A stretch of 64,000 bases of DNA from a virus. Its lineage: Duplodnaviria; Caudoviricetes. Positions 4,312 through 48,614 of this stretch are shown here, piece after piece; positions within the stretch are counted from its first letter, which is position 1; each line of letters opens with the position of its first letter. A model generated the notes under the pieces. It saw nothing but the letters and a program-made list of their open reading frames with translations. It ran no database searches and was not told where the DNA came from. The DNA lies in the IMG/VR virus record IMGVR_UViG_3300036958_000333, positions 160,001 to 224,000 of that record, one strand, 5' to 3'. Both the position numbers and the translations under genes were made by a program.

Positions 4312-5781
4312 ATGATTAAAAAATGGATATTAAATAATTTATTTATAAATAATAAATTAAATAAAATTAGATTAAGAAAAGAATATGTTTTAAGTAATAA
4401 AAATTATTTTGATATTATTTATAATAAAACATCATTTTTAGATAATAATTCTTCAATGTCAGAAAGATTATATTGTATTTTAAATAATATAAAATCAAAA
4501 ACGACATGTAAAAATATTAATTGCAATAATAAAGTTAATTATATTAATTTTTACTTAGGATATCATAGATTTTGTTCTACAAGATGTGCATCTAATGATT
4601 TTGATGTTAAACAAAAAGTAATTAAAACATGTAATGAAAAATATGGAAAAAATCATCCTCAATTAAATGATAAAATAAGACAAAAATCTATAAACACTAT
4701 TATTAAAAAATATAAACAAAATAGTTTTTCAAAAACAAAATTATTTAAACAAAAAATGAGAGATAATTGTATTAAAAAATATGGAAAAGATAATTATATG
4801 CATGTAAATCACATAAAAAACAAATTAAAACAAACTAATTTAATTAGATATGGTCATGAAGTTGCTTCTAAAAATATAGAAATAAGAAAAAATATATTAA
4901 AAAGAAGAGTTGATATACCAGAAAATAAATTAGATTTATTGTTTAATAAAAAATGGCTTGAGTATAATCATATTGTTTTAAATAAATCATGTAATGAAAT
5001 ATCAAAAGAAATAGGTATAGATGTAAAAACAATTTATTATAAATTTAAATATTTCAACATTCCAATAAATAAAAATCATAAAAGTAAATATGAAAAAGAA
5101 ATAATAGATTTTTTAAAATCAGAAAATTTAATAAAAAATTCTAGAAATATAATACCACCATATGAACTAGATATTTACTTACCAGATTATAAATTAGCTA
5201 TAGAATTTAATGGATTATATTGGCATTCTAAATTTGATAAAAACTATCATATAAATAAAACAAATTTATGCGAACATAAAGGAATTAAATTATTACATAT
5301 ATTTGAAAATGAATGGATTGATAAATCAAATATATGGAAATCCATTATTAATAATAATTTAAATAAAAATAAACTCATATTAAAACATACTATAAAAAAA
5401 ATATCTGACATTAATATTATAAAAAATTTTATAAATAATAATTCAATATTAGATGTAAAATTAAAAGGTTTATATTTTGGAGTTTATTATTTAAATGATT
5501 TAATAGGAATAGCTATAATAAATAAAAATAATATTAATATTTTTAATAAAATAAATATTGATTTTAATAGAAATAATATAATATATAAAATAATGAATCA
5601 ATATAATATAGATAAATTATATTTAAATCTAAATAGAAGAATATTTTCTAAAATAAACATAAAAAAAGAATATTCATTAACAAAACCTCATAAAATATGT
5701 TTTAATAAAAATAATAAAAATATGATTGAAATATGGGATTGTGGAAATATAATCGTAGAATATAATGAAAATACCGTCTAA
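4312..5781 (+). CDS. Free-standing homing-type endonuclease (Hef/Vsr-like), copy 1
   Basis: CxxxxC..FCSxxC zinc motif, KKYG repeats, HTH, PPYELDIYLPDYKLAIEFNGLYWHS nuclease motif, WDCGN C-terminus. Confidence 0.75.
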   Translation: MIKKWILNNLFINNKLNKIRLRKEYVLSNKNYFDIIYNKTSFLDNNSSMSERLYCILNNIKSKTTCKNINCNNKVNYINFYLGYHRFCSTRCASNDFDVKQKVIKTCNEKYGKNHPQLNDKIRQKSINTIIKKYKQNSFSKTKLFKQKMRDNCIKKYGKDNYMHVNHIKNKLKQTNLIRYGHEVASKNIEIRKNILKRRVDIPENKLDLLFNKKWLEYNHIVLNKSCNEISKEIGIDVKTIYYKFKYFNIPINKNHKSKYEKEIIDFLKSENLIKNSRNIIPPYELDIYLPDYKLAIEFNGLYWHSKFDKNYHINKTNLCEHKGIKLLHIFENEWIDKSNIWKSIINNNLNKNKLILKHTIKKISDINIIKNFINNNSILDVKLKGLYFGVYYLNDLIGIAIINKNNINIFNKINIDFNRNNIIYKIMNQYNIDKLYLNLNRRIFSKINIKKEYSLTKPHKICFNKNNKNMIEIWDCGNIIVEYNENTV

Positions 5782-7542: not shown

Positions 7543-8277
7543 TTAATCTATATATTTTATTCCTTTCCAGTTTTCTCCTTTTTTTCCATGATATATATGT
7601 AACGGTACATTATCAAAATATATTATTTTTTCATATAAACCTAATGACTTTAATTGTCCATATATTTTATAATCTATTACATCATATCCTACATGTGATT
7701 TAATTGAATCTAATTTAATTGTATCTATTTTATTTAAATAATCTGATTTAAATGTTAAAAACCATCCCATAAAAGGTGATGGATATAATACTTCTCTTTT
7801 TATATTTTCCCACACCCAATATTTATTATTTTTATTATTATTATATAATTTAAAAAATAGATCTATATCATCTTTAGAAATATCTTCTCTATATGACGAT
7901 ATTAATAATTTTTCACTTTCAATAAAATTACATGATGTTTTTAATAAAATATCAGGAGGAAATATAATATCGGCATCAGTTAAAAACAAAAACTGGTTTA
8001 ATCCTATTTTTTTTATTATATTATAACAATAATTTATCATTAATCCTTTATTATTATAATCATTACCAGAATAAGGTATTAAACAGATATTAAAAAATCC
8101 ATTATTAATATAATTATATACTACTCGAGCGGTTTCGTAATCTTTATTACTACTTATTATAATTATTCTGTATAATTCTTTATTATATAACACATTGTTC
8201 CAATAAAATAAAGATGCATTTAAATAATTAGAATAATAATTGCAAACAATTAATATATCAAAAGTTTTGTATTTCAT
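7543..8277 (-). CDS. Glycosyltransferase, GT2/GT-A fold
   Basis: NKGLMIN, FLTDADIIF (DxD), HIYH. Confidence 0.7.
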   Translation of the reverse strand: MKYKTFDILIVCNYYSNYLNASLFYWNNVLYNKELYRIIIISSNKDYETARVVYNYINNGFFNICLIPYSGNDYNNKGLMINYCYNIIKKIGLNQFLFLTDADIIFPPDILLKTSCNFIESEKLLISSYREDISKDDIDLFFKLYNNNKNNKYWVWENIKREVLYPSPFMGWFLTFKSDYLNKIDTIKLDSIKSHVGYDVIDYKIYGQLKSLGLYEKIIYFDNVPLHIYHGKKGENWKGIKYID

Positions 8278-9256
8278 TTATTATATTTCTCACAGTTTTT
8301 TCCCAAGATATTAAATTCGGATAATTTTCAATAAAATCATTTCTTATATTAAACGGAGTATTTTTACTATAATTATTTAAAACATTATTTATTTTATTAA
8401 CAATATTATTCGTGTTCCATAATATAATATTATTAGATTTTAAATAAAAACTTGGAATTTTAGCATCTTCATGTAAAAATATATAATTTCCAGCATATTG
8501 ATTTTCTAATATTGGATATCCAAAACTTTCATTCATACATATAAATATTTTTGATTTATTATATACTTTACATATTCTTCTATAATGAGAAGTTGGACCA
8601 TATAGATTTCCACATTTTTCAAAAACAAATGGGTAATTACCAAATTGTATAAATTGAACGTTACATTTTTTTAATATATCACTATATGCTTTTTTTAAAT
8701 TATAATATATAGGTTCATCCCAATTTATTTTACAAAAATCAACAATTATTCCATTATAATCTGATTTTTCTGGATATATCCAATCAAATTGACCACATCC
8801 TATTTCTATCTCTTTATTATTAATATATTTCTTTTTAATTACAAAAAATTTATCTATTGAGTTAAAATTATTTAATTCTTCTTGATTATTAGATAAAAAC
8901 TTATATTCATTATTAGTTATTTCAAAATCTTTTTTATCATCAAATGGAGCAAATCCAGAATATGAAATTATTTTAGCATTTGTTTTAGATTTAATATCAA
9001 ATAAATTACATTTTGATATTCTTTTTCCTATCCATATAGGGAATATTATAAAATCAAATCCTTTTAATTTTTTTGGATCTATATATAATCTTTCAGGTTC
9101 GTGGATATCTAATCTTACAAAAATTATTTGTATATCTTTAAAAAAATCTATATTTTTAATTGATATATTTCTTATTCCGTTTTTAATTCCTTCTATTAAA
9201 AAAGAAGGGGCATTATTCCATTGTTTTCTTACACATAATACTGCTATTTTTATCAT
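8258..9256 (-). CDS. Glycosyltransferase, GT-B (GT4-like)
   Basis: ESFGYPILE motif near C-terminus. Confidence 0.65.
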   Translation of the reverse strand: MIKIAVLCVRKQWNNAPSFLIEGIKNGIRNISIKNIDFFKDIQIIFVRLDIHEPERLYIDPKKLKGFDFIIFPIWIGKRISKCNLFDIKSKTNAKIISYSGFAPFDDKKDFEITNNEYKFLSNNQEELNNFNSIDKFFVIKKKYINNKEIEIGCGQFDWIYPEKSDYNGIIVDFCKINWDEPIYYNLKKAYSDILKKCNVQFIQFGNYPFVFEKCGNLYGPTSHYRRICKVYNKSKIFICMNESFGYPILENQYAGNYIFLHEDAKIPSFYLKSNNIILWNTNNIVNKINNVLNNYSKNTPFNIRNDFIENYPNLISWEKTVRNIINEIQNF

Positions 9257-13522: not shown

Positions 13523-14029
13523 ATGAAAACTATTATTATGACAAAAGATCAATTGTTAAAATATTATGAAAATCATGAAAAATTCGATATGATAAAAAAT
13601 GAAATAATAAATTCAAAAAAATTAAAAACACAAGTAAATTTTAATAATATAGAATCTCCAATAATTGGAAGATATAAAATAATATTTATTAATGAAAAAA
13701 ATGATAAAACAAAACATCTATATGAATATGCTAAAAATATATCTAATATAACTATATTTAATGATAAAAATACAAACGTTGCTGATTTTTCATTTAAGTT
13801 ATTTTTTGACGGATCAGGATCTAATACTCTTCAAGAAATTATATTAAAAAAAGATCATTCTGGAGATATAATAATAAAACAAATTAATGAACTAAACCAA
13901 TCATATTTCTTTATAATATTAAAAGATTATAAAATCAATGAAATAAAAATAAGTGAAATAAATAAAGGAATGGTTGATATAATAACATCAATAGAATATA
14001 AAGAAACAATAATTATTAATAACGATTAA
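13523..14029 (+). CDS. Hypothetical protein (weak tail-tube-like pattern)
   Basis: 168 aa, AAGGAG RBS; alternating hydrophobic strands. Confidence 0.45.
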   Translation: MKTIIMTKDQLLKYYENHEKFDMIKNEIINSKKLKTQVNFNNIESPIIGRYKIIFINEKNDKTKHLYEYAKNISNITIFNDKNTNVADFSFKLFFDGSGSNTLQEIILKKDHSGDIIIKQINELNQSYFFIILKDYKINEIKISEINKGMVDIITSIEYKETIIINND

Positions 14030-15876
14030 TTCCATACAAAAACCATATTTCCACAGTCCCATATCCTTCTATAACCATTATTATAAATATTTTCTATCTT
14101 TGTTAAATCTTTGTTAAAATATTTTAATTTATATTTTTTAAATTTATCATTATAATATAATTCTAAATCATTTGGAAGGAAATAATAATAATTGTATTCA
14201 GTATTGTTAATATATTTAAATCCTAAATCATAAAATACATCTCCGTTTCCATATCTTCTGTTTTCATAAGCTATAATCGATTTCGGTTTGTATTTATTAA
14301 TAAAATAATTAAATATCTTGTTATATCCACCAATAATTGAATAATTAATTAAAGAACTATATCTAGACAATTCAAATTGATATTTACAATTAGATCTTGG
14401 AATCCTAAATGACATAACAGAAATTAATTTATTATTATAACATAATCCTATATTTATAATAGAATTAGTATATCCATATAAATGATTATTATTATAAAAA
14501 TCATTACAGTTTTTTATTTCTACAATATTACAATATTTGGAATTTATACATATATTTTTTCCAATTTTATCATTAATAATTGATTTCCATATATTCTTTT
14601 TTATATCATTTATCCATTCATTTTCAAATATATGAAATAATTGTATTCCTTTTAAATTACACATATCAGTTTTTATTGCATGCTTGTTTTTTAAATTACT
14701 ATCTGAATAAACATTATTAGAAGAATGCCAATATAAACCATTAAATTCAATTGCTAATTTATAATCTGGTAAATATATATCTAATTCGTTTGGATATATT
14801 ATCTTTCTATCATTAAAGATAATATTTTTAATTTTAATAAATTCTCTTATTTCTTTTTCATAAGATGATATACAATTTTCATATCTTATTGGAATTTCTA
14901 GCCTATGTAAATAACTAAGAACAGTCGTATAATAAACATTTAATTGTTTGGCTATTTCTTTGGACGTCTTATTATTATTTATATATTCTTTATATAACCA
15001 TTCTTTGTTTTGCAATAACGCGAGACTTTTATCACTTATATGTTTTTGATTGTAATTTGTTTTTCCATATTTTATTAAACATGTTTGTTTTCCTTTTTGA
15101 CGAATATAACTAGAACACAACGAGCTGTTTCCACCATATTTGATTTTACAAGTATTTTGTGTTTTTTGTTTAATATTATCTGATTTTTGTGGATTATCAC
15201 AGCCATATTTCTTTATATTAGTATTTTTAATTTTATTTTTAATTTTTGTAGAAGAAAAAACATTCTGTGCGCCATATTTTTTTAAATTAGTTTTTTTTAT
15301 TTTTTCTTGAATACACTTGGATCCAAAAGGAGAACTAGACTTATACTTTTCTTGAAATACTTTACGAATTTTTAATTGTACATTTGAATCATTAAAACAT
15401 GATATGTTTAATTTAGATAATGAATCAGAAATCTTTTTTTTGATATTAATATTTTGAACAGCATGTTCTACTCCATATTTTTTTAAACAAGTTTGTTTTC
15501 TTTTATTTATACTAGATTGTATTCGATCATTTGTTAATAATGACCAATTATATTTTATTTTTTTAGAAATAACACTTTTAACATTTTTATCTGTATGAGA
15601 ACAATTTCTGCAACAAAATTTTTGATATCCTAGATTAAAAGATAAAAATTTACTATTATTTTGACAATTAATATTATTACATTTTACGTTTTTAGTTAAT
15701 CCATTAATTATACAATATATTCTTTCAGAAATAGAAGCATTATCATTTAAATAACTAGTTAAATCTAAAATTATATTATATTTATCTATATGTTTTTTCT
15801 TAATTATTCTAAATCTATTTGGATCAATATTTTTGTCTTTTCCAATAACATTTTTATATAACCATTTTATAATCAT
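14026..15876 (-). CDS. Free-standing homing-type endonuclease (Hef/Vsr-like), copy 2
   Basis: Six K(K)YG-type repeats, ELDIYLPDYKLAIEFNGLYWHS, RIWDCGN. Confidence 0.75.
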   Translation of the reverse strand: MIIKWLYKNVIGKDKNIDPNRFRIIKKKHIDKYNIILDLTSYLNDNASISERIYCIINGLTKNVKCNNINCQNNSKFLSFNLGYQKFCCRNCSHTDKNVKSVISKKIKYNWSLLTNDRIQSSINKRKQTCLKKYGVEHAVQNINIKKKISDSLSKLNISCFNDSNVQLKIRKVFQEKYKSSSPFGSKCIQEKIKKTNLKKYGAQNVFSSTKIKNKIKNTNIKKYGCDNPQKSDNIKQKTQNTCKIKYGGNSSLCSSYIRQKGKQTCLIKYGKTNYNQKHISDKSLALLQNKEWLYKEYINNNKTSKEIAKQLNVYYTTVLSYLHRLEIPIRYENCISSYEKEIREFIKIKNIIFNDRKIIYPNELDIYLPDYKLAIEFNGLYWHSSNNVYSDSNLKNKHAIKTDMCNLKGIQLFHIFENEWINDIKKNIWKSIINDKIGKNICINSKYCNIVEIKNCNDFYNNNHLYGYTNSIINIGLCYNNKLISVMSFRIPRSNCKYQFELSRYSSLINYSIIGGYNKIFNYFINKYKPKSIIAYENRRYGNGDVFYDLGFKYINNTEYNYYYFLPNDLELYYNDKFKKYKLKYFNKDLTKIENIYNNGYRRIWDCGNMVFVWN

Positions 15877-22197: not shown

Positions 22198-25100
22198 ATG
22201 AAACCATGGGAAAAATTATTTGATATTTTTAGTTCTGTATTTTCAAGAGATCTTTCTAAAGAAATACCTAGTCCATCATCACTCTCTGGAGCGGGAATAG
22301 GACAAGCCGACTCAGTAGGATCATCTGAATACCTTGAAGGCGGATCAACATTCAACCACTCCATAGAACTAACAGACCTAAATGACTTCCTAGAAGTTGG
22401 AGAACATACAGATAGAAAAGCTAGATATCTAGAATATGACAGAATGGAAAATATACCAGAAATATCATCTAGTCTAGACACTTATGCAGATGAAATAACA
22501 GTCCCAGATGTAAATGGAAAAATATTTGATGTAAAAACACCAAACAACGGAATAAAAAAAGAATTAGAATGGCTATTCAATAATATGCTACACCTTGACG
22601 ATGGAACACTATGGTCATGGGCTAGAAATATATGCAAAAATGGAGATATATTTCTTGAAATAATTATAAACAGCGAACACCCAGAATATGGAATACAAAA
22701 AATAATGGAACTACCTCCTGAAACTATGTACAGAATTGAAACAGTCAGAGGAAGACTAATCGAATTCCAACAATCATATCTTGGACCAGATTACCAAGCC
22801 GTAGTAAATGATATAAAATCTAATAACCAAGAAAATAAACAACAAACAATTAATATTCCAACATTTGCATATATGACAACAACCGGAGAATTCCCAACAT
22901 CTAATACCATAAGATTCACCCCACAACAAATAATACATATGAAAATAGGAAATAAAAGAAGAGGCTTTTACCCATATGGAATATCAATACTATATGCCGG
23001 AAGAAGAATAGCGCATCTACTAAAACTAATGGAAGATGCTATGGTAATATACAGATTAACTAGATCAACAGAAAGAAGAATATTCTACATAGATATTGGA
23101 ACATTACAACCTAATAAAGGCGAAGCGGTAATAGAAAGAATAAAAGATAAAATAAAAAAGAAAAAAATATACAACAGACATACAGGACAAATAGATGAAC
23201 GTTATAACCCGTGGGCGCTTGATGAGGATTTCTTTATTCCAACTAGACCAGAATCAAATACAAGAGTTGAAACTTTACCGGGAGCATGTTTGTCATTAGA
23301 TACAAACATTCCATTGTTAGATGGTAGAGTTTTAAAATTAAAAGATATAATTGATGAATATAATAATAGAAAACAAAACTGGGTTTATAGTTGTAATCCA
23401 TCAAATGGTGATATTGTTCCAGGTTTAATTAGTTGGGCTGGTATTACAAGAAAAAATACAAATGTTGTTAAAATTATATTTGATAATAATGAAGAATTAA
23501 TTTGTACACCAGATCATAAATTTCCAATTATTGGAAAAGGAAAAGTTCAAGCAAAAGATTTGGTTATAGGTGAAAGCATAATTCCATTTTATACAAGAAA
23601 GTGTTCTACTGGACACAAAAGAGATTATATTCAAGTATACAATAATTATACGAAAAGATGGAAATTCGTTCATAGATTAGTGGCTGAATATTTTAAAAAC
23701 ACAGATCTTTATAATGAATTTTTATTTAATGAACAATATAAAGAAAATAAAAAAGGATTAGTTCATCATAAAGATTATAATAGATATAATAATAATCCAG
23801 ATAATTTATATTGGATGAATTTACAAGATCATTCTGATTTTCATTCAACTAATTATTATTCTAAAGATTTAAAAGTAAAAATGCATAATGGTCTTAAAAA
23901 ATATTTTAAAAATTTAACAAAAGAACAAAGAGAAATAAAAAGAATTATTTCTTATAAAAATATATTAATTGGTTTAAATAAATATTTACATAGATTAAAA
24001 TCAGATAAAAATTATTCAGAATATTGTATAGAAAGAAGAAAAGAAGGTTTTAAAAAATCAAAAATATTAAATCCAGAAAAATGGGAAAAAAGAAGCAAAC
24101 AACTATCTGAGCTCAATAAAAAAAGATTTTCAAATCCAGAATTTAAAAAAATGATAAAAGAAAAAGTATCTTTAAAATTTGATTATAAATTATTAAAAAC
24201 AGTTGTCGATATATTTAATAAAAGATATAATATAACACAAGTAATAAATAGTTTAAATAAAAACAAAGAATTTATAAATCATTTTATTGAATTAAATAAA
24301 CATATAGTTAGGTCTAACTTTAAAGAGTGTGTAAAGTCAAAAGGTTTTACTGCAAACCATTTAAATAAAATGTTAATTTATTTTGGATATAAAAATACAA
24401 AACATTTTATTAAAGAACATAAATATCTAAATCATAGAATTGTAAAAATCGAATATTTAAATGAAAAAATGGATACTGGAACATTAACAATTGATGTTAA
24501 TGAAAAATATCATAATTTTCATACATTTGCAATTAATAATATTGGATTTGTATACAATTCGAATCTTGATCAGATAGATGATACAAAGTACTTTCGTGAG
24601 AAATTGATGGTTGCCCTGAAGTTGCCGAAAAATTATTTATTTCAGGAAGAGGTTTCAATTACAAGAACAAATTTTGCTACACAGGATATGCGTTTTGCTA
24701 GGGCTATTTATCGTGTTCAAAAGGTTTTGTCATATGGTTTGCGACAGATAGCAATAAGACATTTAACATTAAAAGGATATCCTGATAGTGATATTAAAGA
24801 TATAAAGATAGATTTTACATCTCCATCTGATTGGTTAGAATTATCAAGGGCAGAGTTGTTAAGTAGTAGATATAATTTGGCATCTTCTATAAAGGGTTCA
24901 ATGATTTATGATGATTTTACAATATTGACAAAATTGTTAAATCATACTGACGAGGAAGCTCGTGAAATTATAGATAGAATAGAGGCTCAACAATTAAGAA
25001 TGCAGGAAATTCAGGCTCAGGGTCAAATATTTGCTCAACTAGCTACGGCAGAGGCTCAGAATCCTTATGCAGAGCCTAGCCAAGAACCTGAACAAACTCC

Positions 25101-25287
25101 TCCAGAAAATATTAATCCTTCTGATATAATAGAAAAGAGCCCAGAGGAAGAAAAGTCTACCAGTGTTCCTGAAAAAGAAGGTAGTGTTAAAAAGCCAACT
25201 CGTAGTAAAAAGAAATTAAAAAGATATGTTGATTTTTCAGATTTAGAAGCTGATGAAGAAGAAACAGATATCAACTACGATTTATAA
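22198..25287 (+). CDS. gp20: Portal protein, T4 gp20-like, intein-containing
   Basis: YDRME.PEISSSLD, LKLMEDAMVIYRLTR, ERRIFYIDIG, EDFFIPTR, ETLPG, YFREKL..ALK.P. Confidence 0.95.
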   Translation: MKPWEKLFDIFSSVFSRDLSKEIPSPSSLSGAGIGQADSVGSSEYLEGGSTFNHSIELTDLNDFLEVGEHTDRKARYLEYDRMENIPEISSSLDTYADEITVPDVNGKIFDVKTPNNGIKKELEWLFNNMLHLDDGTLWSWARNICKNGDIFLEIIINSEHPEYGIQKIMELPPETMYRIETVRGRLIEFQQSYLGPDYQAVVNDIKSNNQENKQQTINIPTFAYMTTTGEFPTSNTIRFTPQQIIHMKIGNKRRGFYPYGISILYAGRRIAHLLKLMEDAMVIYRLTRSTERRIFYIDIGTLQPNKGEAVIERIKDKIKKKKIYNRHTGQIDERYNPWALDEDFFIPTRPESNTRVETLPGACLSLDTNIPLLDGRVLKLKDIIDEYNNRKQNWVYSCNPSNGDIVPGLISWAGITRKNTNVVKIIFDNNEELICTPDHKFPIIGKGKVQAKDLVIGESIIPFYTRKCSTGHKRDYIQVYNNYTKRWKFVHRLVAEYFKNTDLYNEFLFNEQYKENKKGLVHHKDYNRYNNNPDNLYWMNLQDHSDFHSTNYYSKDLKVKMHNGLKKYFKNLTKEQREIKRIISYKNILIGLNKYLHRLKSDKNYSEYCIERRKEGFKKSKILNPEKWEKRSKQLSELNKKRFSNPEFKKMIKEKVSLKFDYKLLKTVVDIFNKRYNITQVINSLNKNKEFINHFIELNKHIVRSNFKECVKSKGFTANHLNKMLIYFGYKNTKHFIKEHKYLNHRIVKIEYLNEKMDTGTLTIDVNEKYHNFHTFAINNIGFVYNSNLDQIDDTKYFREKLMVALKLPKNYLFQEEVSITRTNFATQDMRFARAIYRVQKVLSYGLRQIAIRHLTLKGYPDSDIKDIKIDFTSPSDWLELSRAELLSSRYNLASSIKGSMIYDDFTILTKLLNHTDEEAREIIDRIEAQQLRMQEIQAQGQIFAQLATAEAQNPYAEPSQEPEQTPPENINPSDIIEKSPEEEKSTSVPEKEGSVKKPTRSKKKLKRYVDFSDLEADEEETDINYDL
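23287..24558 (+). mobile_element. Intein (424 aa) with HNH homing endonuclease in portal
   Basis: PGA|CLSLDT start, CTPDHKF block B, VHRLVA...VHHKDYNRYNNNPDNL HNH, ends FVYN|S. Confidence 0.92.
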
Positions 25288-28537: not shown

Positions 28538-28878
28538 GGGGGTGAATTAGAATCGACTAAGTTGTTAAAAAAACAATTGCAAGCGGAGCATGTTTTAATA
28601 TCTCCTTAAACTATAAAACAAAAAATAAATGCAAATAATTTTGCTTTAGCTGCTTAGTTGTAGCGATTTTTAATAATATTCTTGTATTTATTAAAAATTT
28701 CACTTATTCGAGATAGTTATATAAAATTATTGTAATTATATAATGAATCTAACAATATAGTTTATATAAAGTTTTTTATTTTTCTTATATAAATTAAATT
28801 AAAAAATAAAAAAGCTTGTAGTATATTGTTTTCTAAACAATTTAGGACGAGAGGAGCATTACCTCTCCACCTCCACCA
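28538..28878 (+). ncRNA. ssrA: tmRNA, tag peptide (A)ANNFALAA
   Basis: 5' GGGGGTG pairs with CACCTCC-A-CCA including G3.U70; TCGAC near 5' end; tag ORF 28631-28657; T-arm GAGAGG-AGCATTA-CCTCTC. Confidence 0.93.
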
Positions 28879-29647: not shown

Positions 29648-30145
29648 ATGATTTCAATTATTGTTGCAATAAATAATAAAAACGTTATTTCCTCTGATGG
29701 AAAAATCCCATGGAAATGTAAAGAAGATTTGTCTCTTTTTAAAAAATTAACTCTTAACAAACCAGTAATAATGGGTAGAAAAACATTTGAATCTTTAAAT
29801 AATAAACCGTTAAAAAATAGAACAAATATAGTTTTAACATCAAACCCTATTTCTATAAATAAGAAATTTTATGATAATTCTTTTGGTCCATTTATTGTTA
29901 CAGATATAAATACTTCAATAAAAGTAGCTTCAGCTTTTAATAATGAAATAATGATTATTGGGGGAGAATCTATTTACAATCAATTTATGGATTCTAATTT
30001 AGTAGATAGAATATATATTAGTAAAATCAATAATAACGAAAGAGGAAATAAATTTTTTGAAATAAAAGATGTTTCGAAATGGGAAGAAAAAGAATCAAAA
30101 CAATATAACGAATTTATATTTAAAATATATGAAAAAAGAATATAA
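29648..30145 (+). CDS. folA: Dihydrofolate reductase
   Basis: IPWKCKEDLSLFKKLT, VIMGRKTFESL, PLKNRTNIVLT, IIGGESIY. Confidence 0.96.
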   Translation: MISIIVAINNKNVISSDGKIPWKCKEDLSLFKKLTLNKPVIMGRKTFESLNNKPLKNRTNIVLTSNPISINKKFYDNSFGPFIVTDINTSIKVASAFNNEIMIIGGESIYNQFMDSNLVDRIYISKINNNERGNKFFEIKDVSKWEEKESKQYNEFIFKIYEKRI

Positions 30146-31727
30146 AATATATTTTCCATACAGTAAAATAAGGCCAATACAAAAAACTGCGTTTGATTTT
30201 ATTTTTTCGAATTTAAATTCAAAAAAATATATCATTTTAGAAGGTCCGGTTGGTTCTGGAAAAAGCGCAATAGCTTATACATTGTCAAAATGGATATTAA
30301 ATAATTATAAACCATCTTGTGATTTTGAAAATGGATCATATATTGTAACTACTCAAAAAATATTACAAGAACAATATATTAATGATTTTAATGATATAGC
30401 AAATATATGGTCAAAAAGTAATTATACATGTAAACATAGAAAAAACATGTCTTGTGATGATGGACAAAGACTTGCTCAAATATTTTCAGACAGTAAAGAA
30501 TCAAAAAAATGTAATATAGACTGTGTTTATAATACAGAGTTTAAAAAATTTTTAGCAAATCCAATAGGAGTTACTAATACGGCATATATATTAAATCAAT
30601 TAACATATAATAAATCCGAAAAACTATCATTAAAAAAAAGAGCATTATTAGTTATAGATGAATGCCATAATTTAGAACAAGCTATTGTTAATTTTGTTTC
30701 AACAAAAATATATAAAAATTTTTGTGAAGAAGATCTTGAAATAGATTATATTAATGACGAAAATTTAGATTTATTAAGTATAAAAAAATGGATATCTGAT
30801 ATATTTATGAAAGGATTAGAAGATAAAATATTAAATATAACTGACGAAATATTATCAATAGATCCTAAAAAACAAAAAGTAAGACCTCTTGTTAAAAAAT
30901 ATAATGATTTAGATAAAATAAAATGTAAAACTGATAGATTTATAAAAATGTTTAATGAAAAAAACTGGGTAGTAACAAAAGAAAATGATTATTTTGAATT
31001 AAAACCTATTTATATTAATCAAATAACACAATCATTATTATTTAATATAAGTGAAAAAATATTATTAATGTCAGGTACAATATTAAACCATGAAACTTTT
31101 TGTCAACATGTCGGAATACCAATAGAAGAATCGTGTTTTTTATCAATGGATTCTCCATTTAAAAAAGAAAATAGAAAAATATTTATATCAAATATAGCAT
31201 CGATGAATTATAAAAATATAGATAGTGGAATTAAGAATATAAATAATGCTGTTCAATATTTATTAAGCCAACACCGTGGTCAAAAAGGAATTATACATAC
31301 TCATACTTATAAAATAGCAAAATACTTAAAAGATAATGATAAAACAAAAAGATTATTGATACATGAAACTAATAATAGAAACGAAATATTAAACAAGCAT
31401 ATAAAATCTAAACATGATACCGTATTAGTTTCTCCTTCTTTTACAGAAGGAATAGATTTAATTGATGAATATAGTAGATTTCAAATTATATGTAAAATTC
31501 CTTTTCCATATTTAAAAGATAATTATATAATAGAAAAAATGAAAAAATGTAAAAACTGGTATGAATGGCAAGTTGCAAAAACAATAATACAAGCTTTAGG
31601 AAGATCTGTAAGATCAGAAAATGACTATGCAATTTCTTATATACTAGATTCGGATTGGAATTTCTTTTATAACAAAAACAATTTCTTGTTCCCGAAATGG
31701 TTTAAAGATTCTATTATTTTTTTATAA
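30129..31727 (+). CDS. DinG/Rad3-like SF2 helicase
   Basis: FPY..RPIQ, GPVGSGKS, DECH, MSGT, EGIDL, KIPFP, QALGRSVRSEND; start moved to second Met to limit overlap with folA. Confidence 0.92.
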   Translation: MKKEYKIYFPYSKIRPIQKTAFDFIFSNLNSKKYIILEGPVGSGKSAIAYTLSKWILNNYKPSCDFENGSYIVTTQKILQEQYINDFNDIANIWSKSNYTCKHRKNMSCDDGQRLAQIFSDSKESKKCNIDCVYNTEFKKFLANPIGVTNTAYILNQLTYNKSEKLSLKKRALLVIDECHNLEQAIVNFVSTKIYKNFCEEDLEIDYINDENLDLLSIKKWISDIFMKGLEDKILNITDEILSIDPKKQKVRPLVKKYNDLDKIKCKTDRFIKMFNEKNWVVTKENDYFELKPIYINQITQSLLFNISEKILLMSGTILNHETFCQHVGIPIEESCFLSMDSPFKKENRKIFISNIASMNYKNIDSGIKNINNAVQYLLSQHRGQKGIIHTHTYKIAKYLKDNDKTKRLLIHETNNRNEILNKHIKSKHDTVLVSPSFTEGIDLIDEYSRFQIICKIPFPYLKDNYIIEKMKKCKNWYEWQVAKTIIQALGRSVRSENDYAISYILDSDWNFFYNKNNFLFPKWFKDSIIFL

Positions 31728-31757: not shown

Positions 31758-32321
31758 ATGAATTTAAAAAATATTAATATAGATAAGATTTTAATAGGAC
31801 ATAGTGTACATAGAGATACACCTATTCCTCATGAATATAATGAAGAATTGGATGTTTTACCTATATATGAATTAAAAGATTTAGATTATTCTAAACTAAA
31901 AGTTTTTTCATTAAATATGAAAACAAAAAAAATTGAACTAACAAGTGTTAAATCAATATTAAAACATGAATTTAATGGACAATGGATACAAAACCTCCAA
32001 GGAAATGGAATGGTTATAACAACTCCAAATCATTCTGTATATAATGAAAATTATGAAACTTTTTATCCATATGAAAATGAAACATTAAGAATTCTTACTG
32101 TTAATATACCAAATAAATTAATTGAAAATAAAAAGAAATCTTATAATTGGGATATTTATTTTATTAATTTAAATCTATTATCTAAAAATGATAGAAAAGT
32201 TATAAAAATTGATTCTAAATATTCATCAAATGATGCTTGGGATATAGAATGTATTGATAATCATAATTTTATAGGTGGACAAAGAGAGCTTTTTGTATTG
32301 CATAATACAAATAATTCTTAA
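31758..32321 (+). CDS. Stand-alone mini-intein / Hint-domain protein (168 aa Hint, 15 aa N-flank, 4 aa C-flank)
   Basis: GH|SVHRDTPI block A, TTPNHSV block B, AWDIECIDNHNF block F, VLHN|T block G. Confidence 0.85.
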   Translation: MNLKNINIDKILIGHSVHRDTPIPHEYNEELDVLPIYELKDLDYSKLKVFSLNMKTKKIELTSVKSILKHEFNGQWIQNLQGNGMVITTPNHSVYNENYETFYPYENETLRILTVNIPNKLIENKKKSYNWDIYFINLNLLSKNDRKVIKIDSKYSSNDAWDIECIDNHNFIGGQRELFVLHNTNNS

Positions 32322-32403
32322 CATATAGATCTTATAAACAATAAGGCGAAAAATAGTTTTAAATAATAATCAATATTAAAATTAAAAATAAGAAAAGTAA
32401 AAA

Positions 32404-33666
32404 ATGAATGAATTTGTACATATTCATTTACATACAGATTTTTCTTGCTTAGATGGATATTCTGATATAAAACAATATATTCAAAAAGCAAAAAAAAATA
32501 ATATAAAATATTTTTCTGTTACAGATCATGGTAATTGCGCTTGTATTCCAAAATTAATACAAGAATGTAGGGAAAATGAAATAAAACCAATATTTGGATG
32601 TGAATTTTATGTAAATAATTTTCATCATTTAGTTCCTAATTTTAAAAATTTATCTGATGAAGAAAAATATTTAGTAAAAAAGAACAATCATTTAATATTA
32701 ATAGCTAAAAACGATATAGGTTATGAAAATCTAATAAAATTATCTTCTGAAAGTTGGATAAATGGATTTTATTATAAACCTAGAATATCACTTGATTTAA
32801 TTAAAAAATATTCAGAAGGATTAATATGCACAACGGCATGTTTAGGATCAGAATTATCTCAATATATAATTAAAGAAAAATATAAAGAAGCAATAGATTT
32901 AGTAAAAGAATACAAAGATATATTTGGAAAAGATTATTATTTAGAAATACAAATGATTAACATGAAAGAACAAGACGATGTCAATTCATATTTGATATCA
33001 TTATCAAATAAATTAGATATACCTTTGGTTCTAACTAATGATGTTCATTATTGTGAAAAGTCTGAATTTATTAATCAACAAATACTATTATTATTAAATT
33101 CTAAAGGAACAATAAGCAAGCCAGAAGGATTAGAGTTTCATACAAATCAGCTTTGGTATAAAACAATAGATGAATTAGACGAATTATGGGAAAATAATTA
33201 TAAATCAACTATACCTTTAGAAGAATATAAAGAATCAAAAATAAATACGGTAAAAATATGCGAAAAATGTAATGTTGTAATAGATACAAATCCAAAATTT
33301 CCAAAAATAGAAAATGCAGAAAACGAAATATCAGAAAGATGTATAACTGCAATGAAAAAGAAAGGGTTATATAAAAATAAAATATATCGAGATAGATTTT
33401 TAAAAGAATATGAGGTTATATTTTCTAAAAATTATTGTTCTTATTTTATGGTAGTAACAAAAATTATAGAATATGTTAAAAACGAATTAAAAGAACAAGT
33501 AGGTCCTGGAAGAGGAAGTTGTGGTGGAAGTTTGATATGTTATTTGTTAGGAATAACGCAAGTAGATCCAATTAAACATGAATTATTTTTCGAAAGATTT
33601 TTATCTAAAAGTCGCGGCGGTAAATTTGCAAAACTACAATTTGAAGAAAAAGACGAAATAATATGA
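32404..33666 (+). CDS. dnaE: DNA polymerase III alpha, N-terminal piece (PHP domain and start of palm)
   Basis: HIHLHTDFSCLDG, TDHG, GFYYKPRI, TNDVHY, GPGRGS..GSL..YLLGIT.VDP, FERFL; stops before PDID. Confidence 0.95.
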   Translation: MNEFVHIHLHTDFSCLDGYSDIKQYIQKAKKNNIKYFSVTDHGNCACIPKLIQECRENEIKPIFGCEFYVNNFHHLVPNFKNLSDEEKYLVKKNNHLILIAKNDIGYENLIKLSSESWINGFYYKPRISLDLIKKYSEGLICTTACLGSELSQYIIKEKYKEAIDLVKEYKDIFGKDYYLEIQMINMKEQDDVNSYLISLSNKLDIPLVLTNDVHYCEKSEFINQQILLLLNSKGTISKPEGLEFHTNQLWYKTIDELDELWENNYKSTIPLEEYKESKINTVKICEKCNVVIDTNPKFPKIENAENEISERCITAMKKKGLYKNKIYRDRFLKEYEVIFSKNYCSYFMVVTKIIEYVKNELKEQVGPGRGSCGGSLICYLLGITQVDPIKHELFFERFLSKSRGGKFAKLQFEEKDEII

Positions 33667-35386: not shown

Positions 35387-36841
35387 ATGTTAAAAAAATG
35401 GATTTATGATAATTTATATGATTATAAAAAATCACAATTAACACCATCTAGATGTAATTTTAACTGGTTTAAAAAGAGAAATTTAGAAAACTATTATTAC
35501 AAAATAATAGAAAGTACTGGTTTTTTAGACAAAAATTCGGAATTAAAAGAAAGAATATATTATATAACTAATAATATCAATAAACAAATAACTTGTAAAA
35601 ATTGTGGAATTAATATAAAATATTATAGGAAATTCTGTTCTACAAAATGTTCAAGTAAATCTATAGAAGTTAGAAATAAAACCGCAAAAACGAATATGAA
35701 AAAATATGGAAATTCATGTTCTTTAAATAATGAAATTGTTAATTATAAAAAAAACAAAACATGGTTAAAAAAATATGGATGTAATCATATATTTCAAAAT
35801 GAAAAAATTAAATTAAAAATACAAAATACATTAAGAAAGAAACACAACAATGATTTAATAACAAACCAAGGACAAGTTCATTTAACAAAAGATATAATAG
35901 AGAAAATTAACAGTAAAGAATTTTTATATAATGAATATGTTATAAATAAAAAAACATATTCAGAAATAGCTAGGGATGTTGGAGTAAGCACAAGAACTAT
36001 ATGGCTACATGCAAAAAGTTTTAACATACAATCGAGAACAAGCTCGTTTAGATCATCTTATGAAAATGATATAATGAGCTTCATTCCTAGTAATTTTATA
36101 ATATTAAAGAATGTAAAAGACATAATACCACCATATGAACTAGATTTATATCTTCCTGATTATAAGTTAGCGATTGAATTTAACGGAATATATTGGCATT
36201 CACATAATAATGAAAAAAATAATGTAATAAATAGACATTATATAAAAACAAAACTATGTAAACGAAAAAATATTAAATTATTACATATATTTGAAAACGA
36301 ATGGATAAATAAAACAAAAAGACAGGTATGGAAATCAATAATTAATAATAAATTAAATAAAAATATATCATTAAATATTAATGATTGTAATATACAAGAT
36401 ATAAAAGATATAAATATTATAAATAATTTTATAAATGATAACAGCATAACATGTTTAGATAAATTTAATTTATGTGTTGGATTATATAATAATAATGAAC
36501 TATTGTCTATTTTATATGGATATTATAAAAATAACAAATTAATTTCTGATTTTTGTACTAAAAACAATCATTTTATAAAAAATTCAAAAAAAGCATTAAT
36601 TGATTTTTTTATACAAAAATATAAACCATATAAAATAATAACAAAAATAGATTTAAGATATAATGATATAACTGACTATGAAGAATTAAATATGAAATAT
36701 ATAAGATATGAAAAACCAACATTTATGTATATAAAAAATAATAAATTTTATGGCGAAAAAAATATAAATCCTATATTTGAAAATGAATATAGAAAAATAT
36801 GGAATTGTGGTAAAATTATTTTAGAATGGAGAAGTAATTAA
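35387..36841 (+). CDS. Free-standing homing-type endonuclease (Hef/Vsr-like), copy 3
   Basis: CKNC..FCSTKC, KKYG repeats, PPYELDLYLPDYKLAIEFNGIYWHS, IWNCG. Confidence 0.75.
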   Translation: MLKKWIYDNLYDYKKSQLTPSRCNFNWFKKRNLENYYYKIIESTGFLDKNSELKERIYYITNNINKQITCKNCGINIKYYRKFCSTKCSSKSIEVRNKTAKTNMKKYGNSCSLNNEIVNYKKNKTWLKKYGCNHIFQNEKIKLKIQNTLRKKHNNDLITNQGQVHLTKDIIEKINSKEFLYNEYVINKKTYSEIARDVGVSTRTIWLHAKSFNIQSRTSSFRSSYENDIMSFIPSNFIILKNVKDIIPPYELDLYLPDYKLAIEFNGIYWHSHNNEKNNVINRHYIKTKLCKRKNIKLLHIFENEWINKTKRQVWKSIINNKLNKNISLNINDCNIQDIKDINIINNFINDNSITCLDKFNLCVGLYNNNELLSILYGYYKNNKLISDFCTKNNHFIKNSKKALIDFFIQKYKPYKIITKIDLRYNDITDYEELNMKYIRYEKPTFMYIKNNKFYGEKNINPIFENEYRKIWNCGKIILEWRSN

Positions 36842-37925: not shown

Positions 37926-38091
37926 TATTATAGAATATAAGTACGTTTGTATTTTATGTTCTTATTCTTCTATAAATACAAGTAATCTTAAAAAAGTAGA
38001 ATGCAAAGAATGCAAAGATAAAAAAAACAATTTCAATTATCTTTGTCCATTGTGTCAATATCCTTTATTAAAATATAAATTAAAAAAATAA
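37897..38091 (+). CDS. Second three-CxxC zinc-ribbon ORF without ATG/GTG/TTG start
   Basis: Manual translation: YVCILC...CKEC...YLCPLC; ACG 5 nt after AAGAAGG. Confidence 0.45.
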   Translation, partial: TVILESKEHNIIEYKYVCILCSYSSINTSNLKKVECKECKDKKNNFNYLCPLCQYPLLKYKLKK

Positions 38092-38152
38092 AGCGAATAT
38101 TTTAATTATATTAGAACTAGAAATGTAATTAATTGTATTTATAGGAATAATT

Positions 38153-44702: not shown

Positions 44703-44776
44703 ATTATTTATTTATAAGCGAAAACAAAAAAAATAATAAATTCTTTACAAATTTATAAAAATTAAGGAAAAATAAA

Positions 44777-46084
44777 TTGGAAAAATTAAAAAAAATAGCA
44801 ATTGAAAAATCAAAAGATAATAAGAAATATATAAAAAGATTAAATATTGAATTTGAAGAAATAGATAAGGCCGGTTTATGGAACTATTTCAAAGAAATAA
44901 TTAAATCAAATAAAAAATTTCATAATACTAATAATTTATTATGTGCATACTTGTGGGGAATATGTCCTGAAAATCCAATAGATAAAGACGAAGAATTAAA
45001 ATGGTACTATAGTAATGAATATCCAGATATAGACGTAGATTTTTCTCCAGAATCTAGAGATAAAATAAAAGAATTTTGCGCAAAAGAATTTGGAGAAAAT
45101 AATGTTGTATCAATAGCAAATTATAATCATTTTGGAATAAAATCCGGAATAAGAGACATTTCAAGGGTATTAGAAATACCATTAGAAGAGGTAAATGAAT
45201 GTACAACAAAACTAAATGATGATGTAAATGACATGAAATGGGAAGATGCTATAAAAACATATCCCGTACTGGAACAATTTGAAAAAGAACACCCAAAAGT
45301 ATGTGAATTAGTCAAACAATTTAATGGAAAAGTAAGATCTATAGGAAAACATGCTGGAGGATTAGTAATATCATCTTGTGATTTAACTAAAACAATACCG
45401 TTAATAACAAGAGAAAATCCAGAAAGTGATAAAAAATTTATATTATCTTCATTTTCAGAAGGTCAAAATAGATCTGATTTAAAAACAATGGGTTTAATAA
45501 AACAAGATATACTTGGATTAGATAATCTAAACTATATAAGTACTTGTTTAAAATATATGGAACAAAGAGGAAAATATGATCCTAAAAAGGGAATATTTAG
45601 AACAAAAGAAGACGGAGAAAATTGGGAAGATGAATCATATTTAAACGATCCAGAGTCAATAAAAGTAGCAAATAATGCAGATTTACAGCTTGTATTTCAA
45701 TTTGATTCTGATGGAATAAGAAAATTAGTTAAAAAAACTGGGGTTAATAATTTTTATGATTTAGTAGTATTTAATGCGCTGTATAGGCCTGGTCCTTTAA
45801 ACTGTTTGGAAGAAAATACTAAAATACTTACAAATAATGGATATGTTGAAATAAAACTTCTATCAAATAAACATAATAAAATTGCCTATATAGACAATAA
45901 TGGAAATATTAAGTATACATCCAAATTTATAGTAAAAAAGAAAAATAAAACAAAAAAAATATTAAAAATATCAACGAGTGAAAATGAAATATTATCTTCA
46001 TTAGATCATAAGTTTCTTAATAAAGATAATAAATTTATTGAAGCAAAAAGATTAAAAATTAATGATGAAATAAAAACAATATGA
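44777..46084 (+). CDS. dnaE: DNA polymerase III alpha, middle piece fused to split-intein N half
   Basis: YPDIDVDF, GKHAGG, KQDILGL, VFQFDS, ALYRPGPLN|CLEENT; TTG start. Confidence 0.95.
   Translation: MEKLKKIAIEKSKDNKKYIKRLNIEFEEIDKAGLWNYFKEIIKSNKKFHNTNNLLCAYLWGICPENPIDKDEELKWYYSNEYPDIDVDFSPESRDKIKEFCAKEFGENNVVSIANYNHFGIKSGIRDISRVLEIPLEEVNECTTKLNDDVNDMKWEDAIKTYPVLEQFEKEHPKVCELVKQFNGKVRSIGKHAGGLVISSCDLTKTIPLITRENPESDKKFILSSFSEGQNRSDLKTMGLIKQDILGLDNLNYISTCLKYMEQRGKYDPKKGIFRTKEDGENWEDESYLNDPESIKVANNADLQLVFQFDSDGIRKLVKKTGVNNFYDLVVFNALYRPGPLNCLEENTKILTNNGYVEIKLLSNKHNKIAYIDNNGNIKYTSKFIVKKKNKTKKILKISTSENEILSSLDHKFLNKDNKFIEAKRLKINDEIKTI
45803..46081 (+). mobile_element. Split intein N fragment (93 aa)
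   Basis: CLEENTKILT block A, SLDHKF block B, EAKRLKIND, then stop. Confidence 0.9.
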
Positions 46085-46982: not shown

Positions 46983-47117
46983 ATGATTAAAATAAAAAAA
47001 ATACAATCAATAAAAAAATTAGAAGAAAAACAAACATGTTATGATATATGTTTATTAGAAAAAGATACATATATTAATGAATCTAATTTTATAGCAGAAG
47101 GTTTTATAGTTCATAAT
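46983..47117 (+). mobile_element. Split intein C fragment (45 aa)
   Basis: MIKIKKIQSI...CYDI...NFIAEGFIVHN followed by Ser. Confidence 0.9.
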
Positions 47118-48614
47118 TCTGGAATGGCAAATGCTTATACTGAAAGAAGAAATGGAAAAAAAGATTATAAGACACATGAAATATTAGATAAAATAATAGG
47201 AGACACACAATATGTTATAATATATCAAGAACAATTATTAAAAATAATGAATGTTATTGGAAATATTTCTTTACAAGACTGTGAAATGATAAGAAAAGCA
47301 ATGGCCAAAAAAAGAGAAAAAGAATTCATAAAATATAAAGAAATATTTATTGAAAATGGACAAAAAACCCTAGAATGGAGCAAACAAGAAATAGAAGAAT
47401 TATGGAATCAAATGATTACATTTGCAGATTATGGATTTAACAAATCTCACTCTGTTGCATATACTATGATATCTTCAAGATGTTTATATTTAAAGACTCA
47501 TTATCCAGAAGAATATTTTGCTGCAGTTTTAACGCATTTAAAAACTGGAGATGAAAGAATAAAAAAGTATATACAAGAAGGAGAAAAAAAAGGACTTGTA
47601 TTTATACCGTTAGATATAAATAAATCCAAAACAGGATTTATACCAACAGAAAATGGAATTATAATAGGATTTGATAAAATAAAAGGAATCAAAAAAGAAG
47701 CCATAGAATTAATAAACTTACAACCATTTCATTCTTTTGAAGATTATTTAGAAAGATATGGATTATCAAAAATAACTGCAGAAATATTAATAAAGGCAAA
47801 TGCTTTTAAAAATTTTGAAAATAATATTAAAATATTATTAGAATATTTTAATTATAGAAGAAGCATAAAAGAATCTGATTGTGGAATGGGTAAAAATGAT
47901 TTTGGAAAAATGTTTAAAGAAATAAAAGGATTAAAATCATGCCCTAAGAATATCTATGAACAATTTTTACAATTATGTGATAATAAAAGTAAAATAAAAT
48001 ATAATATATTATTAGATTTTATTAAAAATAATAAATTTGATTTTACAGAAATAGACAAAAACACAATTTTAGAATATATTGAAAAACATAAAAATATATT
48101 TAACTTATCTATAATGACATTAGAAGAATTTAAAAAACAACAACATATTCAAGAAATATCTGATTTTTCATATGAAGAAAAATGTGAATTTGAAGAAAAA
48201 CTATATTCTTTTTATTTTAATCATCCAATAGAAAATTATCAAATAGAAGGAAAACAAATATCAGATGTTATAGAAAATGATTTGGGAGGAATTATTGAAG
48301 GAATAATAAAAGATATAGTAAAAAAGAAAACAAAAAACGATAATTCATATTATATTTTAACTATAGAAGATAAATATGATCAAATTAAAGTTTTACTATG
48401 GTCAAATCAATATAATAAGTATAAAGATATAATATATAAACAATCTGCTATAAGATTAAAAATTAAAAAAAGCCCTTATTCAGCATATAATTTATCAGAT
48501 GATGAAAATATTAAAAGAATAAGGAAAAAAGACGAATTATCTGAAAAAAAAGAAAAAGAAATAAAATTAAAAGAAGAATTTGAAAAACTATTAATAGATT
48601 TAGATAATAAATAA
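46983..48614 (+). CDS. dnaE: Split-intein C half fused to DNA polymerase III alpha C-terminal piece
   Basis: YDI...NFIAEGFIVHN|SG, IIYQEQ, IRKAMAKK, YGFNKSHSVAY, YLKTHYPEEY, DINKS, C-terminal OB fold. Confidence 0.95.
   Translation: MIKIKKIQSIKKLEEKQTCYDICLLEKDTYINESNFIAEGFIVHNSGMANAYTERRNGKKDYKTHEILDKIIGDTQYVIIYQEQLLKIMNVIGNISLQDCEMIRKAMAKKREKEFIKYKEIFIENGQKTLEWSKQEIEELWNQMITFADYGFNKSHSVAYTMISSRCLYLKTHYPEEYFAAVLTHLKTGDERIKKYIQEGEKKGLVFIPLDINKSKTGFIPTENGIIIGFDKIKGIKKEAIELINLQPFHSFEDYLERYGLSKITAEILIKANAFKNFENNIKILLEYFNYRRSIKESDCGMGKNDFGKMFKEIKGLKSCPKNIYEQFLQLCDNKSKIKYNILLDFIKNNKFDFTEIDKNTILEYIEKHKNIFNLSIMTLEEFKKQQHIQEISDFSYEEKCEFEEKLYSFYFNHPIENYQIEGKQISDVIENDLGGIIEGIIKDIVKKKTKNDNSYYILTIEDKYDQIKVLLWSNQYNKYKDIIYKQSAIRLKIKKSPYSAYNLSDDENIKRIRKKDELSEKKEKEIKLKEEFEKLLIDLDNK

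Follow-up and report, generated by a model that had tools for sequence, protein, structure and literature searches.

A contiguous PrkA-type mini-intein without its host gene, probably orphaned by loss of the prkA cluster in a T4-like phage

The window analyzed here is a 64,000-nt stretch (positions 160,001 to 224,000 of IMG/VR record IMGVR_UViG_3300036958_000333) from a T4-like phage with a GC content of 22%, whose genes include gp23 for the capsid, gp20 for the portal, and dnaE in several pieces. Among deposited phages, the uncultured huge phage LR756511 is nearest, with a capsid identity of 66%. Near the middle of the window, all on the plus strand, a gene for a Rad3/DinG-like helicase (30069..31727; Pfam matches to Helicase_C_2, ResIII, and DEAD) is followed by an ORF of 187 aa that contains an intein (31758..32321, stop codon included), an 82-nt spacer (32322..32403), and the first dnaE piece, dnaE-N (32404..33666), which encodes a PHP domain and matches DNA_pol3_alpha at profile positions 16-98. 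The same end point at profile position 98 was found in a distant relative (L005:9989-11398, 35% identity), indicating that this intein-free break before the catalytic PDIDxDF motif is conserved in the phage group, and dnaE piece 2 of the window (44777-46084) restarts at profile position 11 and therefore overlaps the dnaE-N piece. Other mobile elements are also present in the window: the portal gene gp20 (22198-25287, +) is interrupted by an intein with an HNH domain, and three DUF7487 paralogues with Vsr/MTES_1575-like matches (4312-5781, +; 14026-15876, -; 35387-36841, +; mutual identity 35-38%) are probably free-standing homing endonucleases. In one related contig (L014; here and below, L numbers designate related phage sequences), a C-terminus resembling these paralogues ends just 5' of dnaE-N. 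We also considered a group I intron or another RNA splitting the gene, but found none, the only Rfam match nearby being a full-length tmRNA gene (28538-28878, +; RF00023, 84.4 bits, E = 4e-32); ARAGORN detected neither a tmRNA nor a tRNA anywhere in the window.

The intein ORF is laid out as MNLKNINIDKILIGH, a 168-aa intein running from S16 to N183, and a terminal TNNS followed by the stop codon, which leaves 15 residues before the intein and four after it. We identified the insert as a contiguous class-1 mini-intein (31803..32306, +) from its alignment with PrkA inteins, AlphaFold2 and Foldseek results, and a weak match to the Pfam family PF14890. Block A opens with the nucleophile Ser1 of the intein (S16, 31803-31805), followed by xxxDT, and block B was read from the sequence as T-P-N-H (T89-H92, 32022..32033, +), with the surrounding TTPNHS kept in most close relatives and several distant ones when aligned with PrkA inteins. 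Blocks F and G together run from AWDIECIDNHNF to LHN (32235..32306, +), with block F itself at 32235-32270, and align with the IntC of L002, L004, and L008 as well as with contiguous PrkA inteins. The intein terminates in H182-N183 (32301-32306) and is followed by Thr184 at the +1 position (32307-32309). Ser1, TxxH, the terminal His-Asn, and the +1 Thr are all present, and all of them align with PrkA inteins. The ORF reading and the fold model described below confirm the initial annotation, made from the sequence alone, in its description of a complete 168-aa Hint domain with these residues. Its further statement that the domain has no endonuclease and no continuing frame on either side holds as well: neither Pfam nor the AlphaFold2 model revealed an endonuclease domain in the ORF, and in-frame stops lie one codon 5' of the ATG and at +5 after the intein. 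With such short stubs and flanking stops, the window copy is not inserted in frame in a host protein that could be ligated, as its relatives are. It is also a single contiguous ORF, while the inteins of L002, L003, L004, and L008 are split. A promoter and terminator scan found promoter-like sites no more numerous than in shuffled sequence and no terminator.

Structure prediction placed the ORF firmly among the inteins. The AlphaFold2 model, built from an input of 20 aligned relatives, had a mean pLDDT of 88.9 and a pTM of 0.84, and all 47 Foldseek matches in the PDB listed at E <= 1e-3 were inteins, intein-encoded homing endonucleases, or BIL domains. The best of these was 9hth, a Ser1 PolB1 intein (E = 1e-7), and the BIL2 structures 6y75 and 6tmm were also among the top matches. 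The modeled protein has the HINT fold predicted for a class-1 intein. The match to Pfam Intein_splicing (PF14890) was weaker, at 27.1 bits (E = 4e-6), and did not reach the gathering score of 35.8. Bona fide PrkA inteins in full-length hosts score only 19-28 bits on the same profile and also fall under its cut-off, which indicates that the model is insensitive to the PrkA-intein lineage. In the window copy the two intein halves are joined in one frame by a short linker, with a pLDDT of approximately 83-84 that is lower than the model mean. This contiguous intein could predate invasion by an endonuclease, or it could have been re-fused once an endonuclease was lost.

To place the intein ORF we examined its closest relatives, of which a profile-free search found only 22 among 1.84 billion representative proteins; tblastn searches against cultured and deposited phages gave no match. 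A Pfam scan of ten relatives showed eight to be PrkA proteins or N-terminal fragments of PrkA, and in all eight the match to AAA_PrkA stops at profile position 281-285, where the intein begins. The insertion site lies after a conserved ...LIGH, at AAA_PrkA profile position ~282. In L001 and L004 prkA is interrupted by a homologous intein, in L003 the N half of the intein terminates a PrkA N-terminal fragment, and the short contig L002 carries both intein halves with PrkA-like extein stubs. Two further relatives allow the flanks to be compared directly: the PrkA of L007 is intein-free at the site and reads ...QMNIDEVLIGH|TNNPEY, while L008 has a split intein at the same position (...LIGH|SVHGDTPIPHEY... 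and ...LHN|TNNPEF...), with which the window intein shares 61% of residues over the N half and 60% over the C half.

The residues that flank the window intein carry the same signature. Upstream, NINIDKILIGH (31770..31802, +) corresponds to PrkA residues -11 to -1 and is identical at 7 of 11 positions to the L007 and L008 sequence (QMNIDEVLIGH), and against PrkA only a fraction of 8e-6 of the six-frame 11-mers of the window score as well. Similarity ends there, as positions -22 to -12 share 0 of 11 residues with PrkA and score within background, and the start codon with the three codons that complete MNLK (31758..31769, +) has no detectable PrkA similarity. Downstream, the C-extein stub TNNS (32307..32318, +) begins with TNN, PrkA residues +1 to +3 (TNNPEY or TNNPEF in L007 and L008), and the stop codon after TNNS falls at the position of a conserved Glu of PrkA. 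Since both flanks match the L007 and L008 PrkA at the insertion site, NINIDKILIGH and TNN are remnants of PrkA exteins, and the intein ORF has its ancestry at the PrkA site. No other PrkA-like sequence was found in the 64-kb window by tblastn with seven PrkA proteins. The initial annotation had proposed a relic of a family-B polymerase intein, and the relic part of that proposal stands, but the host does not, because the flanks and the scanned relatives point to PrkA.

Gene order led to the same site. In L007 and L008 the helicase gene directly precedes prkA, and the order is helicase, prkA, DUF444, spoVR, and dnaE-N; the helicase of the window is 53-55% identical to those of L007, L008, and L009. 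The prkA cluster or its spoVR end also lies 5' of dnaE-N in L001, L005, L012, L013, L016, L017, and L022, and is directly adjacent to it in four of these seven. Specifically, DUF444, spoVR, and dnaE-N follow one another in L012 and L016, and spoVR and dnaE-N in L013 and L017, while the complete trio of prkA, DUF444, and spoVR is followed by a trypsin-like peptidase gene and then dnaE-N in L005, by dnaE-N ~2 kb further downstream in L022, and by several small genes and then PHP and dnaE genes in L001. In the window the order is helicase, intein ORF, and dnaE-N, so the intein ORF occupies the genomic place that prkA has in L007 and L008, between the helicase gene and dnaE-N. The order 3' of dnaE-N is that of the relatives as well, with a 200-aa ORF, a methyltransferase gene, a 5'-3' exonuclease gene, and an Fpg-like gene. 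In L009 the helicase gene abuts dnaE-N directly, which represents a clean loss of the cluster. L009 and the window fall in different clades of the DnaE-N tree, with moderate support, suggesting that the cluster has been lost at least twice and is dispensable.

This part of the genome is rich in inteins among the relatives. An intein is present in spoVR of L008 (6867-10001) and L016 (1270-4368), two LAGLIDADG inteins are present in spoVR of L007 (5570-9961), and the L001 PrkA has two inteins, from which we conclude that the prkA cluster is an intein hotspot in these phages. The second of the L001 PrkA inteins (8160-9054) is frameshifted twice, within block A and where its N and C halves meet, and is either a decaying copy or the result of assembly indel errors. 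In addition, the dnaE-N of relatives has an intein at a position equivalent to window residue 371/372 (L007:10001-11737, L008:10001-12516, L016:4486-6150, and L020). In L008 this intein is split by an intervening gene, and in the other three it is contiguous; the dnaE-N of the window has none.

The sequence between the intein ORF and dnaE-N was searched for further traces of the host gene. The 82-nt spacer contains a possible decayed trace of the PrkA C-extein (LINNKA, compared with LVNNRS), but the background fraction for its permutation score ranges from 1e-4 to 0.17 with the reference used, and the stretch overlaps an ATAA[AG]GCGAA motif. Because of these marginal scores and this overlap we did not rely on a C-extein past the stop codon. 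The PrkA match on the C side is ambiguous beyond +4, which places the breakpoint somewhere between +4 and about +14. No convincing repeats were found at the deletion junctions. The ATAA[AG]GCGAA-like motif occurs at 32338-32350, ~38085-38098, and ~44714-44722, in each case 58-60 nt 5' of a start codon (those of dnaE-N, the 5'-3' exonuclease gene, and dnaE piece 2), and is a candidate promoter or regulatory element.

The arrangement was recovered from more than one assembly. The 3' part of the ORF, the stop codon, the 82-nt spacer, and dnaE-N recur on L010 (from JGI, 99.9% nucleotide identity) and on L011 (from an ENA wastewater metagenome, 99.5%), and the encoded intein ORF protein is identical over the parts covered except for one Pro-to-Leu change in L011. 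The protein is on record in four sources (NCBI, JGI, ENA, and the Logan re-assemblies), the largest contig being 272,848 bp. The initial annotation had allowed for a misassembly that hides longer exteins; two independent contigs with the same downstream junction argue against it there, and the helicase-side junction is seen in the window alone.

Taken together, we consider it likely that the intein ORF is an orphaned PrkA intein, a recent and probably neutral remnant of a deleted prkA cluster rather than a domesticated device. The ancestral layout in this AT-rich T4-like group would have had prkA, a DUF444/yeaH-like gene, and spoVR between the Rad3-like helicase gene and dnaE-N, with prkA often bearing a Ser1/Thr+1 intein after ...LIGH. 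In the phage of the window the cluster appears to have been deleted on both sides of the intein, by deletions whose order and number we infer, presumably leaving the contiguous mini-intein with 11 recognizable PrkA codons before it and three after it. The ATG may be the start codon of prkA itself, kept through an in-frame internal deletion. If the ORF is expressed, and if the intein is competent for splicing, the 187-aa precursor would undergo an N-O acyl shift at Ser16, transesterification to Thr184, and cyclization of Asn183, and the predicted products would be the 168-aa intein and a 19-residue peptide without an expected function. The arrangement is unusual, and is most likely a by-product of gene loss.

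A further question is whether selection has been involved in the survival of this ORF. The initial annotation suggested a domesticated protein ligase or peptide-release device, that is, a stand-alone Hint protein kept by selection for a new role after prkA was lost, with candidate roles that include release of the 19-mer, autoprocessing or ligase activity, and a decoy that acts on the PrkA split-intein halves of co-infecting relatives. Several observations are in keeping with this proposal, the first being that every catalytic residue has been retained, as the annotation had noted. Between 6 and 9% of single-base changes in the ORF would create a stop codon, and the chance that a neutral ORF stays open is 0.06-0.15 at 5% divergence and <0.03 at 10%, making an intact frame at 22% GC unlikely under prolonged neutrality. 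The GC content of the ORF (20.9%) also matches that of the genome (22.2%). When the window is compared with L008, the intein (60-61% identity) is as conserved as its essential neighbors, among them the helicase (55%) and dnaE-N (57%) genes, and as the methyltransferase gene (57%). Relative-rate tests against L008 with distant outgroups gave unique changes of 4:4, 5:7, and 4:4, that is, no acceleration, albeit with low power; an apparent excess of 23:8 was obtained with L002, which may not be a true outgroup. Finally, an intact intein could remain only if two deletion boundaries each fell within ~15 codons of its ends and a usable ATG was left, and under random decay such a combination would be a striking coincidence. 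The tight deletion boundaries, the kept start codon, and the open frame are in fact better explained by maintenance under selection than by neutral decay.

Against domestication, the search for similar stand-alone ORFs that the annotation had called for found no stand-alone homolog among the 1.84 billion representatives, an outcome that the annotation had itself named as part of a refutation, and the sole full-length match in a search of 5.8 billion sequences was the window's own protein. The other copies are only near-identical contigs of the same phage, and the 19-mer is simply PrkA flank sequence. There is no Shine-Dalgarno-like motif 5' of the intein ORF either, although about half of the neighboring genes likewise have none. 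The lack of a stand-alone homolog in these searches leaves domestication unsupported, and we regard it as unlikely. Should the ORF be maintained by selection nonetheless, it would be the first natural extein-less phage intein, with a new role or as an intermediate in the colonization of new sites, and this too we consider improbable. The open frame at 22% GC means either recent orphaning or selection, and the observations on frame, conservation, rates, and deletion boundaries fit both equally. For a neutral relic, which we prefer and for which selection would presumably be absent, the open frame, the conservation relative to L008, and the lack of rate acceleration place a bound on its age.

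Two other proposals fared considerably worse. The window also encodes a DnaE split intein 13 kb downstream, whose N half closes the ORF at 44777-46084 and whose C half opens the one at 46983-48614. That and the position of the intein ORF beside dnaE-N had suggested a helper or competitor of the split intein. These are the only points in its favor, and the ORF has no significant similarity to the DnaE split-intein N half (best E = 0.16), belongs to the PrkA lineage as a contiguous intein of the cis-splicing type, and has no counterpart in L009, which has the same dnaE architecture. The usual place of the prkA cluster is just before dnaE-N, and as this synteny explains why the intein ORF adjoins dnaE-N, we read the adjacency as an inherited position and not as functional coupling; a helper or competitor role is therefore very improbable. 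An origin from a family-B DNA polymerase intein, to which only the loose likeness of ILIGH|TNNS to YGD|TDS points, or an assembly artifact hiding longer exteins, is just as far-fetched, given that the ten scanned relatives include eight PrkA proteins and no family-B polymerase, that the flanks fit PrkA at the insertion site, and that the TNNS-stop, spacer, and dnaE-N junction is reproduced in two independent assemblies and the protein recorded in four sources including re-assemblies.

In the literature that we searched, we found nothing relevant on PrkA as an intein host, nor, in full-text searches, on orphan, free-standing, or stand-alone inteins. Models of intein evolution assume a lasting host gene that the intein enters and in which it later decays and disappears, whereas here a dispensable host cluster was lost and the intein is intact. 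If its survival merely reflects recent orphaning, the locus is a datable snapshot of phage gene loss, whereas selection on the ORF would show that exteins are not needed for an intein to persist, with consequences for the domestication of Hint domains and for the question of how new insertion sites are reached. A family of PrkA inteins with Ser1 and Thr+1 also came to light, some of whose members are naturally split and have a cognate free-standing endonuclease, and split inteins with Ser or Thr nucleophiles are of practical interest for protein ligation.

The closest known systems are the PrkA-site inteins themselves (L008, L004, L003, L002, L001, and the distant P0008-P0014), which have the same site (...LIGH | S...HN | TN...) and share Ser1, TTPNH, NHNF, HN, and the +1 Thr with the window copy, those of the related phages being 50-62% identical to it in the N half. 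These relatives sit in full-length or fractured prkA genes, whereas the host gene of the window copy is gone. Four of them are split and the distant P0008-P0014 inteins have a LAGLIDADG domain, whereas the window copy is contiguous and without an endonuclease. Between the halves of the split PrkA inteins lies one family of free-standing endonuclease genes (L002:498-1388, L003:6951-7487, L004:2832-3677, and L008:3583-4443), which are 45-55% identical to each other and have weak TnsA-like or Phage_endo_I Pfam matches. The term “fractured genes” has been used for split inteins whose halves are separated by a free-standing Vsr/TnsA-like homing endonuclease (Dassa et al. 2009, PMC2677866), and PrkA is absent from the list of hosts in that study. 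The same layout is seen in the prkA of L002, L003, L004, and L008 and in dnaE pieces 2 and 3 of the window, while the PrkA intein of the window differs from fractured genes in that it is unsplit and has extein stubs only. In structure, the best match is the fused Aes123 PolB1 intein (9hth; TM 0.63-0.69), which resembles the window intein in its Ser nucleophile and size but has only 19% sequence identity to it and resides in another host protein at another insertion site. Hint domains are also found in the yeast elements HO and WHO, which are non-splicing and retain a zinc finger and an endonuclease, and in BIL domains, which lie in variable proteins and have family-specific motifs. Like the window ORF, the HO and WHO elements (Coughlan et al. 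2020, PMC7282813) and BIL domains are Hint domains outside a conserved host. The window ORF has neither the LAGLIDADG endonuclease nor the stand-alone conservation across taxa of the HO and WHO type, and it differs from both these elements and BIL domains in keeping the canonical set of intein motifs and a traceable ancestry in PrkA.
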